Below, piece by piece: positions 1 to 44,417 of a stretch of DNA of 53,760 bases. This stretch comes from Candidatus Omnitrophota bacterium. Lineage in GTDB: Bacteria; Omnitrophota; Gorgyraeia; Zapsychrales; Fredricksoniimonadaceae. The translations under genes were made by a program, and so were the position numbers. Every line of letters begins with the position of its first letter. Within the stretch, counting starts at the first letter, position 1. The stretch is from contig JAKFXC010000042.1 in NCBI GenBank assembly GCA_021731625.1, forward strand, positions 640-54,399. Reading direction: 5' to 3'. The notes beneath the pieces were generated by a model that did not search any database, had not been told where the DNA came from, and saw nothing but the letters and a program-made list of their open reading frames with translations.

Positions 1-480
1 TTTGTTCTGGTCCGCCGGCACATAGCCGCGGCCCCGGGAGATTTCCAGTTCCATATTGAACGGAATGTCCTGGGTGAGCGTGGCCAAATGATGCTCGGGA
101 TTTAAAACTTCAATGACCTCATCGGCAATGATGTCCTTGGCCGTGAGGGTGCCTTTTTTATTGGCTTTAAGATACACGGTCTTGGGGGCCTTGGAATGCG
201 AACGCACAATCAAGCCCTTGACGTTTAGAACAATTTCCGTCACCGATTCCAGAATGCCGCTCAAGGTGGCAAACTCATGCGACACGCCTTCGATGCGAAC
301 GGACGTGACCGCGCTGCCCTCGATGGATGAGAGTAGGATGCGGCGCAGGGAATTGCCCAGGGTCACGCCGTAGCCGCGCTCAAAAGGTTCGGCGATGAAT
401 TTGCCAAACGTGGCGGTGTAATTGGATTCGTCGCAATCTAAACGTTTTGGCATTTGAAAATCGCGCCATTTTACTCCCAT
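1..480 (-). CDS. rpoA: RNA polymerase alpha subunit (5' part; runs off window start)
   Basis: Hand translation from ATG at 480: MGVKWRDFQMPKRL...FIAEPFERGYGVTLGNSLRRILLSSIEGSAVTSVRIEGVSHEF; AGGAGG RBS; follows rpsD. Not in ORF track. Confidence 0.97.
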   Translation of the reverse strand, partial: MGVKWRDFQMPKRLDCDESNYTATFGKFIAEPFERGYGVTLGNSLRRILLSSIEGSAVTSVRIEGVSHEFATLSGILESVTEIVLNVKGLIVRSHSKAPKTVYLKANKKGTLTAKDIIADEVIEVLNPEHHLATLTQDIPFNMELEISRGRGYVPADQNK

Positions 481-533
481 GTTCGTATCCTCCTAATGCG
501 ACCACAAAATTGTGTCGCTTGTTTAAATCCGTA

Positions 534-700
534 TTGAAATAATGTTGTTGCCTTCGACACGGAACATTTTTGGCGTTGGCTTCGGTTTACGTCTCGAGAA
601 TTTTATAGTAAAATTTTTTATATGAATTCTCGCGACGTAATCCCTCGCAAACCTTGCCAAAAAGTTCCTGATTGTGTCGAAGACAACAACATTATTTCAA
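534..700. repeat. 167-bp imperfect palindromic element, family A copy 1
   Basis: Terminal arms ttgaaataatgttgttgccttcgacac / gtgtcgaagacaacaacattatttcaa (1 mismatch), inner stems, AT-rich loop; core homologous in reverse orientation to 37696-37862. Confidence 0.9.
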
Positions 701-701
701 A

Positions 702-1328
702 TTACCTAGAATATAGCTCTACAATCAATTGCTCGTTAACGCCGAAGCTGACGTCCTCGCGCATTGGTAGACGCACGACTTTAATTTTTAAATTCCCTGG
801 TTCGACCGCTAGCCACGCTGGGATTTTGCGTTCTTTGGTGACTTCCACGTTGTTTTTGATCGCATTGGTGGTCTTGGCGTCGGTCTTGATTTCAATGACG
901 TCGTTGGGTTTGACCAGGCAGGAGCTGATATTTACCCGGCGGCCATTGATCGACACATGGTTGTGGCTGGCGATTTGCCGTCCGTCATCGCGGGATTTGG
1001 CAAATCCGGCATTAAAAAGCACACTGTCCAAACGGCGCTCCAAATATTGCAGCAGCAAATGCCCGGTGACACCCTTGGTGCCCGCCGCCTTCAAGAAATA
1101 ATTGCGGAACTGGCGTTCCAGCATGCCGTAAATGCGCTTCACTTTTTGTTTCTCGCGCAGCTGGATGCCGAAGTTGGAGAGTTTCGCCTTCTTTAAGCCG
1201 TGCTGGCCCGGGGCATATTCCCGACGGGCAACAGCGCATTTGTGCGAATAGCAGCGCAGGCCTTTAAGAAAAAGTTTCTCGCCTTCGCGGCGGCACATCC
1301 GGCAGTCCGGTCCTAGATCACGGCCCAT
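702..1328 (-). CDS. rpsD: 30S ribosomal protein S4 (Zn-binding type)
   Basis: MGRDLGPDCRMCRREG, QLREKQK, LERRLD motifs; start moved to second Met. Confidence 0.97.
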   Translation of the reverse strand: MGRDLGPDCRMCRREGEKLFLKGLRCYSHKCAVARREYAPGQHGLKKAKLSNFGIQLREKQKVKRIYGMLERQFRNYFLKAAGTKGVTGHLLLQYLERRLDSVLFNAGFAKSRDDGRQIASHNHVSINGRRVNISSCLVKPNDVIEIKTDAKTTNAIKNNVEVTKERKIPAWLAVEPGNLKIKVVRLPMREDVSFGVNEQLIVELYSR

Positions 1329-1333
1329 ATAAT

Positions 1334-1756
1334 TTACACCCTTCTTTTCTTGCGTGAACGGCACCCGTTGTGCGGGATCGGCGTCACGTCTTTAATGGAA
1401 GTCACATTCAAACCTGCAGCCACCAGCGCGCGGATGGCCGATTCCCGACCAGAACCCGGCCCTTTGACCAACACATCGACGCTGAGCAATCCCATTTCCT
1501 TGGCCCGGCGGGCGGCGTCTGTGGCTGCCACTTGGGCGGCAAACGGGGTGGATTTTTTGGACCCGTGAAAACCCACCAGACCCGGCGTGGCCCACACAAT
1601 GCAGGCACCCTGGCGGTCGGCAATGGTGATGATGGTATTATTAAAAGAGGCCTGGATGGTGACAATCCCTGAGGTGATGCCTTTGAGTGACTTCTTCTTG
1701 GCTTTCACCGCTTTCTTGACGACCTGTTGTTGTGATGGTTCAGGTTTTGTGGCCAT
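1334..1756 (-). CDS. rpsK: 30S ribosomal protein S11
   Basis: [29 protein letters not shown] motifs. Confidence 0.98.
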
Positions 1757-1770
1757 GGCCGTTCACATCC

Positions 1771-2157
1771 TTACTTTTTAGGTTCTTCTTTTTTAATGAT
1801 ATGCCCCACCACCGGTTTTTTCCCTTTGCGGGTGCGGGCATTGGTTTTGGTCCGTTGGCCGCGCACCGGCAAACCTTTGCGGTGGCGAAGCCCGCGGTAG
1901 GAACCCATTTCCATATGGCGACGGATGTTGTCATTGGTTTCCCGGCGCAAATCCCCTTCGGTGACATAGCTTTTCTGCAAAATGCTGGTGATGCGCGAAA
2001 TCTCTTCCTCGGTCAAATCTTTAGCGCGCTTGTTCACACTAATCTGCGCCTGGGCCAAAATCAGGCGCGAACGGGTCAGGCCGACCCCATATATATAGGG
2101 AAGCGCGGCCTCGATGCGCTTGTCTTTGGGTAAATCGATACCTAAAATTCTGGGCAT
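1771..2157 (-). CDS. rpsM: 30S ribosomal protein S13
   Basis: [26 protein letters not shown] motif. Confidence 0.98.
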
Positions 2158-2159
2158 AA

Positions 2160-2273
2160 TTATCCTTGCCTTTGTTTATGTTTGGGATTGGTGCAAATGA
2201 CCCGCACCACCCGCTTGCGGCGGATGACCTTGCAGTTGCCGCAAATTCTCTTGACCGACGATTTGACTTTCAT
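2160..2273 (-). CDS. rpmJ: 50S ribosomal protein L36
   Basis: Hand translation [37 protein letters not shown] (37 aa); canonical infA-rpmJ-rpsM position. Confidence 0.97.
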
Positions 2274-29096: not shown

Positions 29097-29327
29097 GTTC
29101 TCGCCCTGCCCAACTCAAACCAGGCCTGGCAGGACTCCGCTCGGCCTACGGCCTCGCTAGAACCTGTCGCTCCTTGCCTTCGGCAATTCGCTCCCCATAG
29201 GGGCGAAGCCCCTATGGCGCTCCTCACTGCGGTGGTCGCTGTCACCCCAAAAACGTGGGGAAAATTTTTCCCCACACCCCTTTTAGGTTCTCGCCCTGCC
29301 CAATTTAAAACAGGCCTGGCAGGACTC
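29097..29327. repeat. 41-bp direct repeat (tRNA-Trp 3' end plus flank) with 190-bp period, enclosing a hairpin array
   Basis: gttctcgccctgcccaa(ctc/ttt)aaa(c/a)caggcctggcaggactc at 29097-29137 and 29287-29327. Confidence 0.85.
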
Positions 29328-29384
29328 GAACCTGCAACGCACGGTTTTGGAGACCGTCGCTCTACCAATTGGAGCTACAGGCCT
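29311..29384 (-). tRNA. tRNA-Trp (CCA)
   Basis: AGGCCTGTAGCTCCAATTGGTAGAGCGACGGTCT-CCA-AAACCGTGCGTTGCAGGTTCGAGTCCTGCCAGGCCTG; 3' CCA not encoded. Confidence 0.97.
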
Positions 29385-37669: not shown

Positions 37670-37695
37670 ACTATATTTCCTCGTTTCGATTGTAT

Positions 37696-37862
37696 TTTAG
37701 GATCAGTTATGATGTTCGGCACAATAAGGAACTTTTTGCCAGTGTTTGCGAGGCTTTACGTCGAGAAAATTAATATAATAAATTCTACTATAAAATTTTC
37801 GAGACGTAAACCGAAGCAAACGGCAAAAATGTTCCGTGCCGAACATCATAACTGATCCTAAA
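37696..37862. repeat. 167-bp imperfect palindromic element, family A copy 2
   Basis: Perfect 27-bp terminal inverted repeat tttaggatcagttatgatgttcggcac / gtgccgaacatcataactgatcctaaa; core matches the reverse complement of 534-700. Confidence 0.9.
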
Positions 37863-38373
37863 CATATAGTCGGTACCGCCTAATATATCCAATAACCCGA
37901 TCCGGAGTCAAATAACGGATGGATTTCCCGCTCTTGACGAGCCGGCGGATCTCTGACGACGAAATATTAAACCATGAGCGACTGACCGCAATGAAACAGG
38001 CCAAGCGCACAATCTCGGAAAAATACTTCCAGGACTCCAAGCGGTCGATGTTGTCTTCCCCCACAATCCAAAACAACTGCGCCTTAGGGTGCTGGGCCCG
38101 GTAGACCCGCAGGGTGTCCACGGTGTAGGATATCCCGCCGCGTTTTAGCTCCTCGTCGCCCACCGCAAAAAACGGATTGCCCTGGATGGCCAGCTTGGCC
38201 ATATTCAACCGATGTGCCCCGCTTTGCACCGAGGCACTTGATTTATACGGCGAGCAATGTGCCGGCATGAAAATAACCTTGTCCAACTGCATTTTCTGGC
38301 GGGCCAGTTCCGCCATCAGCAAATGCCCGTTGTGGATGGGATCAAAAGACCCGCCTAAAATACCGATGCGCAA
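37858..38373 (-). CDS. nadD: nicotinate-nucleotide adenylyltransferase
   Basis: GGSFDPIHNGH, SYTVDTL, ISSSEIR; TTG start at 38373 after AAGGA. Confidence 0.93.
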   Translation of the reverse strand: MRIGILGGSFDPIHNGHLLMAELARQKMQLDKVIFMPAHCSPYKSSASVQSGAHRLNMAKLAIQGNPFFAVGDEELKRGGISYTVDTLRVYRAQHPKAQLFWIVGEDNIDRLESWKYFSEIVRLACFIAVSRSWFNISSSEIRRLVKSGKSIRYLTPDRVIGYIRRYRLYV

Positions 38374-41440: not shown

Positions 41441-41472
41441 AACGCTCCTAAAATAGGGGGCTGGCCCCAATT

Positions 41473-41509
41473 AAAAATCCCAGTCCCGGATCACCGAGAC
41501 TGGGATTTT
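41473..41509 (-). terminator. intrinsic terminator-like hairpin after rplU
   Basis: Minus strand AAAATCCCAGTCTCGG-TGAT-CCGGGACTGGGATTTTT. Confidence 0.7.
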
Positions 41510-42052: not shown

Positions 42053-42988
42053 TTACAAACAAAATTGATATTTTGATGCCGCATTTTCGGACAGCCTCAT
42101 CGCTTTTATTTGAGACGCAATACCCCCTGCTTCAAAAATGGCACTGCCCCCGGCATGATGCTGGATTTTCTCTGCCATTGCTTTGCCGGCCAAGGTTTCG
42201 GCAAATGTTCGCAGTTTCATATATTCCTCTCGAGAGTCAATGATGAGGCGGTCAACGTCAGATTTAAGCAAATCGCGCACAACCCTCCAAATAAAATCAT
42301 ATTCCTGATAAACCAGGACCGGACCTTGCTTTTGCTTTGACAAATTTTGGATTTTCTCCCAGATAGCGGTTAAGAACTTAGCATCGCGGATTATCTCTGT
42401 CTCGGTCGCACCAACGGACGCGGTGCGTACAATAAAGCCTCCGCTGTGCGCAAAATTAAATGACTTCAATATTTCTCGAAATCGATGGCGCTCCCGCAAA
42501 TCCTTAGTCTTTTTGGGAATGCCGTCGTGGCGATGCCAAGGCATATAAACAACAAAGCGACCAGGCAAACTGATCTTCGTGCTGAGTTCTGCGTTTTTTG
42601 TACCAATGAGGTCCTTGATCACCTGCACCAGGACCTCCTCACCCTTCTCAACAGGCAGTTCTTTTTTATTCGTCACCGGTGTGCTGTCCGCCAGCTGTCT
42701 TTTATTGAAAATATTTGAGATTTTATTACCTATACTCACGCTGCGTTCGATTTTTCCATAGTCAACGTCACTCAAGAAAGGGTTTTCTTCATCGGCTAAA
42801 TTCAAAAATCCTTTTGTGTCCGGTTCGATATTAATGAAGCCATAGTCTTGTGCCTTGCCCTTATAAATATTACCCACCCTGGAAGGGTGAAGGTCTCGCT
42901 CGATATAAAGGTGGTCCGCCTTGCCATCCACCACAACCGCAACATGCTTCTCGCCGTTGGCCACGTGAATCAAAATTTCCTTAGACAC
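42053..42988 (-). CDS. truncated RNase E/G paralog (S1 plus 5'-sensor only)
   Basis: Colinear with the first two-thirds of the upstream gene (GNIYKGK, SLPGRFVV, GGFIVRTAS); lacks DVN, IDFID and the CxxC Zn-link. Confidence 0.85.
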   Translation of the reverse strand: MSKEILIHVANGEKHVAVVVDGKADHLYIERDLHPSRVGNIYKGKAQDYGFINIEPDTKGFLNLADEENPFLSDVDYGKIERSVSIGNKISNIFNKRQLADSTPVTNKKELPVEKGEEVLVQVIKDLIGTKNAELSTKISLPGRFVVYMPWHRHDGIPKKTKDLRERHRFREILKSFNFAHSGGFIVRTASVGATETEIIRDAKFLTAIWEKIQNLSKQKQGPVLVYQEYDFIWRVVRDLLKSDVDRLIIDSREEYMKLRTFAETLAGKAMAEKIQHHAGGSAIFEAGGIASQIKAMRLSENAASKYQFCL

Positions 42989-43016: not shown

Positions 43017-44417
43017 TTAATCGATCTTGACTTTGCCCCGCCCCTCGCAATACGGGCAGCTGTGGAACTTCAACGATTCAATGGCTTTGCCGGTGCGGGC
43101 CCGGGTCATTTCGACCAAACCTAGCTGGGATATGCGATTGACTTCGGTTTTCGCATGGTCTTTGACCAATTCATCCCGCAGGCAATGCAACACCTTACGC
43201 TTATGGTCTTCCCGGTTCATGTCGATAAAATCAATGACGATGATCCCGCCTAAGTCGCGCAAGCGCAATTGCCGGGCGATTTCGGGCGCTGCTTCCATGT
43301 TGACCGCAAAGGCCGCATCCTCCGGCGAGCCTTTGGTCTTAAACCGCCCGCTGTTGACATCGACGACGGTCAGGCCCTCGGTGGGTTCAATGACCACGTA
43401 GGCGCCGGATTTTAAATAAATTTTGGGCTCATAAATTTTTTCCAGCTCACGGGCAATCCCCCGCGCCTCAAACACCGACTGCCCGGCGGAGTGGTACTGA
43501 ATTTTGCCAACCAACTCCTTGCCCGCCAGGGTCTCGGCAAACTTGCGCAGTTTGATATATTCTTCCTGCGAGTCAATGGTCAACTTTTCGACCTCATCTT
43601 TGAGCAAATCCCGTACCACCTTCCAAATCAGGTCATATTCCTTATAGATCAAGGCCGGCGCCTGCTTCTGTTTGCCTAAGTTGCGGATCCTCTCCCACAT
43701 GGCGGTTAAAAATTTGGCGTCGCGGGTGATTTCGCGTTCGCCTATATCCACCGAGGCGGTGCGCACGATGAACCCGCCGCTGCGGACAAAATTAAGAGAT
43801 TTGAGAATGTCCCGCAGGCGGTGCCGTTCTTCCGGCTTTTCTATTTTTTTGGAAATGCCGTTGTGGCGGTCAACCGGCATATACACCACAAACCGGCCGG
43901 CCAAACTGATGTGCGTGGTCAACCTTGCCCCTTTGGTGCCAAACGGGTCTTTGACAACCTGCACCAGCACCTCCTGGTCTTTTTTGAGCGGCAGGTCATT
44001 CTTGCCTTTCTGTGGATGCTGCTGGTGCCGCGGGTGGGGTGGCGGCGGTGGTGGCGTCGGATTGGCCTGGGCAGGCTTCTCCGACTCTGTGGCGGCGGCG
44101 CCGGGTTTGGGCATAAACATATTCAACAACTTTTGCCCCACCGTCGGCGGTGCCGGTTCGTCTTCGATCTTTTCGATGTCGTTTAAAAAAGGATTGTCCG
44201 CGTCGGTCAAGTATAAGAATCCGTTTTTCTCCTGCCCGATATTGATGAAGGCACCATTGATCGACGGCAAAATGGACTCCACTTTGCCTTTGTAAATGTT
44301 TCCCAGCATCGACTGATGCCGGTCCAGTTCAATGTAAAAATCATCCAGCTTACCGTCGACCAAAACGGCAACCCGGCGTTCTCCTTCGGCCACATGTATT
44401 AAAATTTCTTTGGACAC
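43017..44417 (-). CDS. rng: ribonuclease E/G family (RNase G-sized)
   Basis: GNIYKGKV, GARLTT, IVRTAS, VDVNSG, LRDLGGIIVIDFIDM, CPYC. Confidence 0.93.
   Translation of the reverse strand: MSKEILIHVAEGERRVAVLVDGKLDDFYIELDRHQSMLGNIYKGKVESILPSINGAFINIGQEKNGFLYLTDADNPFLNDIEKIEDEPAPPTVGQKLLNMFMPKPGAAATESEKPAQANPTPPPPPPHPRHQQHPQKGKNDLPLKKDQEVLVQVVKDPFGTKGARLTTHISLAGRFVVYMPVDRHNGISKKIEKPEERHRLRDILKSLNFVRSGGFIVRTASVDIGEREITRDAKFLTAMWERIRNLGKQKQAPALIYKEYDLIWKVVRDLLKDEVEKLTIDSQEEYIKLRKFAETLAGKELVGKIQYHSAGQSVFEARGIARELEKIYEPKIYLKSGAYVVIEPTEGLTVVDVNSGRFKTKGSPEDAAFAVNMEAAPEIARQLRLRDLGGIIVIDFIDMNREDHKRKVLHCLRDELVKDHAKTEVNRISQLGLVEMTRARTGKAIESLKFHSCPYCEGRGKVKID

Follow-up and report, generated by a model that had tools for sequence, protein, structure and literature searches.

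A dispersed long-hairpin repeat with a conserved asymmetric centre in a family-level clade of Candidatus Omnitrophota

Introduction

Repeats such as REP, ERIC and the Correia elements have been known for decades, and for most of them both the way in which they move and the reason why their hairpins are retained are open questions. The ERIC (or IRU) sequences of enterobacteria and the related YPAL of Yersinia, which is approximately 168 bp long, are imperfect palindromes over their whole length of 127–170 bp that lie in transcribed intergenic spacers in either orientation, differ in copy number between relatives and are conserved in sequence along the whole element. To our knowledge no transposase is known for ERIC, IRU or YPAL, and no conserved lopsided centre between paired stems that vary freely has been reported for these families. 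The Correia elements (CREE or NEMIS) of Neisseria are gene-less sequences of 100–155 bp that are co-transcribed with their neighbours, fold as hairpins and carry conserved 26-bp terminal inverted repeats with a TA duplication; here too we know of no transposase that has been identified. The attC sites of integrons are recombination sites read as a folded single DNA strand, in which structure is conserved over sequence, extrahelical bases are fixed on one strand and the apical part varies; they are placed right after the stop codon of a gene. Elements derived from IS200/IS605 (PATE-like) have two different ends, left and right, both with a short subterminal hairpin on one and the same strand, and are not palindromes over their whole length. 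The REPINs, which go with RAYT transposases, are presented by Bertels and Rainey (2011; PMC3116915) as short, gene-less, extragenic and multi-copy sequences that persist in lineages, that are made of conserved REP palindromes at the ends with a variable spacer between them, and for which a hairpin is predicted in single-stranded DNA or mRNA.

In this work we analyse a long hairpin in a 53,760-nucleotide stretch of DNA from a Candidatus Omnitrophota bacterium (GenBank assembly GCA_021731625.1, contig JAKFXC010000042.1; hereafter the window), where it occupies the spacer between rpsD and rpoA of the alpha operon. A first-pass annotation, made from the letters of the window, had offered two readings of this hairpin, a non-autonomous mobile palindrome or a structured RNA tolerated within operons. 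The reading that we prefer, and that we hold to be probable without regarding it as secure, is that window positions 534–700 are an insertion of a gene-less, non-autonomous dispersed repeat of approximately 170 nt which is read as a folded single strand, probably of DNA. A search of open-access full text and preprints returned no description of such palindromic or hairpin repeats in Omnitrophota (Omnitrophica), and the repeat appears to be undescribed, though of a familiar kind.

Results

The hairpin in the alpha operon and its second copy

The surroundings of the hairpin are those that the first-pass annotation had given: Pfam matches place the genes for ribosomal proteins S13, S11 and S4, then the hairpin (copy 1), then the N-terminal part of RpoA, all genes on the minus strand, and the near-full-length palindrome in the rpsD-rpoA spacer was found at exactly the positions reported for it (Table 1). 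Copy 1 lies 1 nt past the S4 stop codon and 53 nt ahead of the rpoA start, and the C-terminus encoded by rpsD is intact in comparison with relatives. When the minus strand of window positions 525–710 is folded, a single long hairpin results with a minimum free energy (MFE) of −83.5 kcal/mol, as against a mean of −34.9 kcal/mol for shuffled sequences (z = −12.1), and none of 200 shuffles is as stable.

A second copy of identical length and opposite orientation had also been proposed, and it is indeed present. The upstream gene, cytidylyltransferase-like (nadD-type) by Pfam, takes its last codon and its TAG stop from the first bases of copy 2, which ends 27 nt ahead of the start of a phosphoglucomutase/phosphomannomutase (PGM/PMM) gene. 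The minus strand of positions 37687–37872 folds with an MFE of −89.6 kcal/mol (z = −16.6, 0/200 shuffles as stable), so that both copies are near-perfect hairpins of approximately 167 nt. A repeat search pairs the arms 553–690 and 37706–37843 over 138 nt with 86% complementarity, and BLAST aligns cores of 129 nt at 87.6% identity with 16 differences, in agreement with the earlier hand count of about 16 differences over some 129 bp; the three compensatory pairs of changes named between the two copies can be read directly from the sequences. Scored with a covariance model built from 32 copies (R1), copy 1 reaches 142.4 bits on the plus strand and 58.0 bits on the minus strand, and copy 2 reaches 153.6 bits on the minus strand and 60.5 bits on the plus strand; the higher-scoring strand is hereafter called canonical.

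Table 1. Coordinates of copy 1, its parts and neighbours, and of copy 2 (positions in the window).
Feature	Position	Strand	Remarks
Copy 1, hairpin repeat	534..700	+	Canonical strand (higher R1 score) is +, antisense to the operon
Copy 1, basal stem, left arm	534..560	+	Pairs with 674–700; 27 bp, 1 mismatch
Copy 1, conserved core, left half	561..590	+	Terminal hexamer invariant in 32/32 aligned copies
Copy 1, apical stem-loop, AT-rich	591..636	+	Sequence varies between subfamilies, always paired; ~100 nt longer in one relative
Copy 1, conserved core, right half	637..673	+	Fixed one-sided irregularities: 3–4-nt bulge, and 5-nt bulge at 669–673
Copy 1, basal stem, right arm	674..700	+	Direct reading and fold
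rpsD (ribosomal protein S4), upstream of copy 1	702..1364	-	Pfam Ribosomal_S4 and S4 domains
rpoA, 5' part, downstream of copy 1	1..480	-	Pfam RNA_pol_A_bac and RNA_pol_L
21-nt hairpin between copy 1 and the rpoA ribosome-binding site	498..518	.	Direct reading
Copy 2	37696..37862	-	Canonical strand is -, sense to the flanking genes

The short hairpin between copy 1 and rpoA has an arm that resembles the inner end of the basal stem of the element. Since derivatives with internal deletions occur elsewhere, this likeness in sequence suggests that the short hairpin may be what remains of an older copy after internal deletion.

Copies, architecture and coding content

The assembly to which the window belongs comprises 2.28 Mb in 101 contigs and is 95% complete. 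A count of the copies in this genome, a check that had been proposed, gives approximately 10 of them, namely 8 full copies, 1 copy reduced to the core with its outer stem lost, and 1 half copy. Six copies share one outer stem, and copy 1 and the copies C23 and C39 have outer stems of unrelated sequence that are nevertheless each self-complementary; in the alignment the basal stem of copy 1 is unlike those of the other copies in the genome. By BLAST the copies are only 80–91% identical to one another, and for this reason none of those in this genome need be recently active.

The element is one continuous hairpin of approximately 80 bp. A conserved middle of approximately 75 bases has three irregularities that lie on one side, bulges of 5 nt and of 3–4 nt and a small internal loop, and this holds in the relatives too. 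The middle is flanked by a basal stem of 19–45 bp and an apical stem-loop whose sequence varies freely while their pairing is constant, and in one relative basal and apical stem length is variable as well. In the alignments it is thus the ends, formed by the basal stem, that are the most variable part of the element and the middle that is conserved. Under R1 the canonical strand scores 125–172 bits and the reverse strand 36–72 bits, which means that the core keeps its asymmetry from copy to copy and does so on one DNA strand.

We found no conserved open reading frame: among the 8 full copies the longest frames differ in length and in frame, and on this ground an encoded peptide was rejected. 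Within the window no Rfam family reaches its gathering score except for 2 tRNAs, and the 9 copy-bearing loci gave only 5 sub-threshold matches to eukaryotic microRNA precursors, at 23–42 bits against gathering scores of 60–211, which are matches by chance. The comparison with Rfam, which could have taken away the novelty of the element, therefore assigned it to no family.

Distribution among genomes

Searching with a covariance model, as the first-pass annotation had advised, extends the family well beyond the two copies from which it was recognised. R1 matches occur in 37 of the 63 genomes of the window's GTDB family, including 12 of its 17 genera other than the window's own, and in a sample taken at the level of the order they occur in 24 of 45 genomes of the same family as against 2 of 105 genomes of other families. 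The number of R1 matches per genome ranges from 0 to 47, which is not to be equated with copy number because either strand of a palindrome can give a match and no more than 48 candidates per genome were scored; copy number itself goes from 0 to more than 20 among genomes of the family. When 185,579 species, represented by one genome each, were scanned for an exact pattern, 110 stretches came up, and among the matches listed 79 of 80 are labelled Candidatus Omnitrophota or uncultured Planctomycetales. The one other match among these 80, in Marinobacter, was set aside as it has no hairpin, and the exact pattern had 0 matches in viral contigs. The element is essentially confined to one family-level clade of Candidatus Omnitrophota.

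Insertion and turnover

Comparison with orthologous spacers gives a direct view of sites with and without the element. The rpsD-rpoA spacer measures 18, 19, 32 and 37 nt in the four closest relatives (74–80% S4 identity) as against 221 nt in the window, and the C-terminus and stop codon of S4 do not change between the short spacers and the long one. The spacer between dnaK and dnaJ was followed in one genus, where it is 0–17 nt long in three genomes, holds the element at one junction in two genomes, holds another subfamily further downstream in two others and retains a deletion remnant at this latter place in one more; in the window's genome the same spacer contains a third insertion, in opposite orientation, which begins at the stop codon. 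The element is thus multi-copy, orthologous sites occur with and without it, independent insertions have hit the same spacers, and copies decay by internal deletion. The first-pass annotation had advised a search for empty sites in relatives, which are found at both rpsD-rpoA and dnaK-dnaJ, and had held that only two copies with no empty sites would speak against mobility; what we find is approximately 10 copies together with empty orthologous sites. From this distribution we infer that the element is mobile.

Turnover differs in pace between genomes. One high-copy relative contains approximately 40 copies, of which 11 are 94–100% identical, plus internally deleted derivatives, and the close identity of these 11 points to a recent burst. 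In this young subfamily the repeated unit extends past the hairpin on both sides by a short extra sequence that includes a direct repeat of approximately 13 nt, and the hairpin may therefore be just the centre of something larger. For the element as a whole we could define neither a clear target-site duplication nor a fixed terminus, and no shared target duplication is evident in the 11 young copies, the unit boundaries of which are themselves indistinct. In a fragmented relative the matches are located at contig ends. Short, low-depth contigs assembled from 4 DNA runs of one study contain no empty-site variant of copy 1 (window 1–2200); both junctions of copy 1 are covered in them, other copies join at the core, and no joint skips the element.

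The possibility that the basal stem is copied from the target was raised by a 7-mer in common with the empty rpsD-rpoA spacer of one relative. It was ruled out, as 6 copies here and 11 in the high-copy relative share a basal stem at unrelated sites.

Some spacers of these genomes also hold hairpins of other kinds. A genome from another family of the order (L159) has an rpsD-rpoA spacer of 154 nt, in which a strong hairpin unrelated to the element folds with an MFE of −58.6 kcal/mol; spacers of 96–124 nt with weaker folds stand at this place in other relatives, and the spacer after rpsD seems to collect different hairpin insertions. In the high-copy relative a second, unrelated long hairpin of approximately 190 nt stands directly behind the element between dnaK and dnaJ (L204:1690-1860), short motifs recur beside many copies, and several repeat families pile up in the same spacers.

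Conservation of pairing

To put numbers on the covariation, pairing was counted in two alignments. In the first (A1, 13 sequences), 95.4% of 759 pair cells are paired as against 76.3% in shuffles, none of 500 of which reaches the observed value, and when partners are slid along the alignment at most 45.2% are paired; double changes are seen at 46 of 60 pairs. In the second (A2, 32 sequences from approximately 20 genomes), 94.8% of 1716 cells are paired as against 75.5% in shuffles (0/500), with 362 double-change cells as against 112 in shuffles and only 16 cells changed on one side through a wobble. The proposal of the first-pass annotation that the hairpin is under selection or is copied as a hairpin is strongly supported by these formal counts.

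The kind of pairing that is kept is also informative. When 72 hairpins were folded with G-U forbidden, 5070 Watson-Crick pairs stood beside 173 single mismatches, which on the canonical strand are 46 G.T, 62 A.C and 65 others. What is conserved is pairing of the Watson-Crick type; the wobble intermediates that typify RNA helices under selection are lacking, and on the canonical strand the G-U test for RNA selection was discarded as neutral (46 vs. 62). Read on the sense strand, the mismatches lean to wobble (33 G.T vs. 19 A.C), and this leaves some room for RNA-level selection. The sense-strand test is only weakly positive and is confounded, since a mutation bias between the strands is present at unpaired sites as well: in the young copies (L190-L200), substitutions of the types T>C and G>A on the canonical strand outnumber the reverse types by 18 to 4 at paired sites and by 6 to 0 at unpaired sites.

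The 11 young copies further show how quickly pairing is restored. Their 803 pair cells contain 20 single changes and 3 private double changes that restore a Watson-Crick pair, whereas independent change at each site would by our arithmetic give approximately 0.2 doubles, whatever their kind; compensation is therefore fast. Its source could be selection among replicating lineages, conversion between copies, or arm-to-arm templated correction, and DNA repair or template switching could produce the strict complementarity without a folded transposition intermediate.

Gene context and orientation

All measured copies of this genome lie between co-directional genes, and the 7 full copies that could be measured all begin between −5 and +4 nt from the upstream stop codon, with 6–200 nt still left before the next start. 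In an independent set of 40 regions from six other genomes, in which 27 elements were resolved, 23 elements lie between tandem genes, 2 between convergent and 2 between divergent ones, at a median of 21 nt from the upstream stop and 37 nt from the downstream start. Because the hairpin is nearer to the stop than to the start in 16 of the 23, placement at the stop codon is a tendency and not a rule.

The canonical strand is oriented at random to the flanking genes. Sense and antisense copies number 4 and 5 in this genome; the high-copy relative has 9 and 12 of them and the independent set 12 and 11, which sums to 25 sense vs. 28 antisense. A strand asymmetry that is conserved while orientation is random argues that the agent preserving the core does not act via the host mRNA. 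The GC skew of the 3-kb flanks, which mostly reflects gene direction and so says little on how copies are oriented to replication, is positive on the canonical strand at 33 loci and negative at 29. By this flank skew, 10 of the 11 young copies share one orientation to their neighbouring genes, and in the same high-copy genome copies of other subfamilies have the opposite direction more often (8 of 12, by gene calls).

Search for a mobilising enzyme

No candidate for the mobilising enzyme stands out among the families searched. The first-pass annotation had seen no transposase in the window, and this agrees with genome-wide searches for Y1_Tnp, DDE_3, DDE_Tnp_1 and Phage_integrase, which have no match on the window's contig. 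Elsewhere in this genome there are 4 Y1_Tnp genes, for which the best model is that of the REP-associated tyrosine transposases (E 7e-26 to 6e-15, one over the cut-off), and 7 tyrosine-recombinase matches. Of the tyrosine recombinases 6 were scanned, and only XerC and XerD are over the cut-off; no integron integrase is among these 6, their scores with the integrase model being 57–137 bits vs. a cut-off of 265.

The neighbours of incomplete copies were also inspected. A possible autonomous copy on contig C59 was rejected when the pair of partial copies there proved to bracket cysS and not a transposase, and a right-half copy in the high-copy relative was likewise set aside since an ABC transporter gene precedes it; what stands next to the half copies that were examined is cysS, tmk or a gene for an ABC transporter, and no transposase. 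The search for an autonomous partner flanked by the same arms, which the first-pass annotation had suggested, thus came out empty among Y1 and RAYT-like genes, DDE transposases and the neighbours of half copies.

Discussion

The element shares traits with each of the systems described in the Introduction and departs from each of them. It can be set beside ERIC and YPAL by description only, and on that footing it is like them in the size of its palindrome, in its place in transcribed spacers, in occurring in either orientation and in its varying copy number; it differs in its host phylum, which is not theirs, and in having variable stems where those families are conserved over their full length. 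With the Correia elements, as they are generally described, it has in common that its copies are gene-less co-transcribed hairpins, but its termini are unconserved and no consistent duplication was seen. The parallels with attC sites as these are commonly described are the folded strand, the fixed bases on one side, the variable apex and the placement after a stop codon. Against them, the element has neither terminal consensus boxes nor any other conserved terminal motif, and it stands as single copies between core housekeeping genes and not in cassette arrays, in a genome where none of the 6 tyrosine recombinases scanned is an integron integrase over the cut-off. One continuous hairpin is also not the end architecture of IS200/605-derived elements, which tells against the MITE origin from IS200/605 suggested by the first-pass annotation, and from classical MITEs the element is set apart by termini that differ between subfamilies within one genome and by the lack of a parent insertion sequence in this assembly. 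REPINs (PMC3116915) are similar in being short, gene-less, extragenic, multi-copy and persistent in lineages and in keeping their hairpin by compensatory changes, as the Omnitrophota element does; in architecture the two are reversed, with conserved ends in the one and a conserved middle in the other, and REPINs flank a single-copy RAYT gene. By their defining tests the element is not a REPIN, a classical MITE, an IS200/605-derived element or an attC site, and it is best read as a non-autonomous dispersed DNA repeat of the REP/ERIC/Correia/REPIN kind.

Between the two readings offered by the first-pass annotation, the mobile palindrome is the better supported one, since this genome has approximately 10 copies and relatives have between 0 and more than 20, with empty sites, independent insertions and internal deletions. 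We propose that the element spreads, or has spread, via a form in which one strand is folded on itself, most likely as single-stranded DNA, and that the mobilising machinery would recognise the conserved asymmetric middle with its three fixed one-sided irregularities. The basal and apical stems would then need only to pair, whatever their sequence, and correction of one arm of the palindrome on the template of the other may contribute to the strictness of the Watson-Crick complementarity. Copy 1 in the alpha operon would be a mere passenger that is transcribed through. A more specific version of this proposal, by analogy with the reading of attC by integron integrases, is a structure-guided hairpin transposon in which the base of the stem sets the boundaries and a chromosomal enzyme reads the three bulges on the folded strand. 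We consider this version a speculative one that is unlikely as it stands; if true, it would explain the matched drift of the stems, the unchanging lopsided centre and the insertions at gene ends in either orientation.

An alternative that dispenses with mobility is that the hairpin is a cis-acting RNA selected by the host, be it an intercistronic stabiliser, a processing site for RNase III or a barrier that uncouples the translation of neighbouring genes. The placement of copies in transcribed spacers between co-directional genes and close to stop codons, in all 7 measured here and to a lesser degree in the independent set, is what such a function would lead one to expect; either strand folds as RNA, and there is the mild excess of G.U-compatible mismatches on the sense strand. 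This excess loses weight since the strand bias is also found at unpaired positions, and the random orientation of copies whose asymmetric core is yet conserved on one DNA strand, as well as the near absence of wobble from the covariation (16 of 1716 cells), is hard to reconcile with a function in the transcript. Moreover, close relatives do without the element in the essential rpsD-rpoA and dnaK-dnaJ spacers, its copy number goes from none to more than 20 within one family, and deletion stumps are tolerated. The structured RNA of the first-pass annotation is accordingly weakened, and we judge a host-selected RNA to be improbable.

The remaining alternatives accept mobility and name an enzyme. 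Movement of a REPIN-type element by the REP-associated tyrosine (Y1/HUH) transposase of this genome would fit the presence of 4 such genes here, of at least one Y1-like frame in each of the five high-copy genomes examined, and of compensated hairpins in REPINs too (PMC3116915). Element and Y1 gene are found together in 26 of the 63 family genomes, with the element only in 11, Y1 only in 10 and neither in 16, although these genomes are kin and do not make a clean test; in one genus the element is present in 4 of 5 genomes and a Y1 gene in 0 of 5, and the element does not follow the distribution of any one Y1 orthologue. Around 19 RAYT-like loci, 4 in this genome and 15 in relatives, R1 has 0 matches at E up to 1 within approximately 3 kb, and two of the RAYT-like genes in this genome are flanked by 24-nt REP families of their own, with 27 and 12 exact 18-mer copies. 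These findings count against the RAYT mobilisation that had been suggested, as does the reversed architecture, and we give it a slim chance. An ordinary MITE, cut and pasted by a DDE transposase via its terminal inverted repeats, for example one of the IS630/Tc1-like kind with a TA target duplication, appears to us very improbable. It is true that every copy ends in inverted repeats, that TA stands at both junctions in 4 of the 6 copies with preserved ends in the commonest subfamily of this genome, and that some DDE genes occur in relatives. The termini are, however, the least conserved part, with several unrelated basal stems in one genome, no target duplication common to the young copies is evident, and self-BLAST of the assembly finds no dispersed repeat of 250 bp or more and hence no parent element. 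Nor does any DDE family track the element: this genome has neither DDE_3 nor DDE_Tnp_1, the five high-copy genomes have DDE_3 in 0/5, DDE_Tnp_1 in 3/5, rve in 4/5 and IS110 in 1/5, and one genome with 30 R1 matches has none of these four families.

Whichever enzyme is involved, the repeats provide a clean natural data set for the two questions raised at the outset, how such repeats move and why they retain their hairpins. Copies number in the hundreds over dozens of related genomes, several old subfamilies exist side by side, one genome has had a recent burst, and a frozen asymmetric centre can be compared with freely co-varying stems. They also matter for practical reasons, as they break assemblies of Omnitrophota genomes, inflate spacers inside essential operons and could easily be mistaken for regulatory RNAs in a covariation screen.

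Other repeats in the window and its genome

Several repeats of other types were observed in the course of this analysis. A short GC-rich palindrome right after a stop codon at window positions 41450–41473 is a member of the 27-copy 24-nt REP family, which flanks a RAYT-like gene on contig C31 and forms with it a classical REP/RAYT system apart from the long hairpins. The RAYT-like gene on contig C30 is bracketed by a 56-nt direct repeat with 98% identity (L183:1309-1364 and approximately 2580–2640) and also by short inverted repeats found nowhere else in the assembly. Within the window, a 41-nt direct repeat with 93% identity lies at 29097–29137 and 29287–29327; its second copy overlaps the 3' end of a tRNA gene (29311–29384, minus strand), so that the tRNA end recurs 190 nt away, in the manner of the scar left by an integrated element. 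A further direct repeat of 158 nt, with 71% identity, is found at 42510–42667 and 43846–44003, 1336 nt apart.
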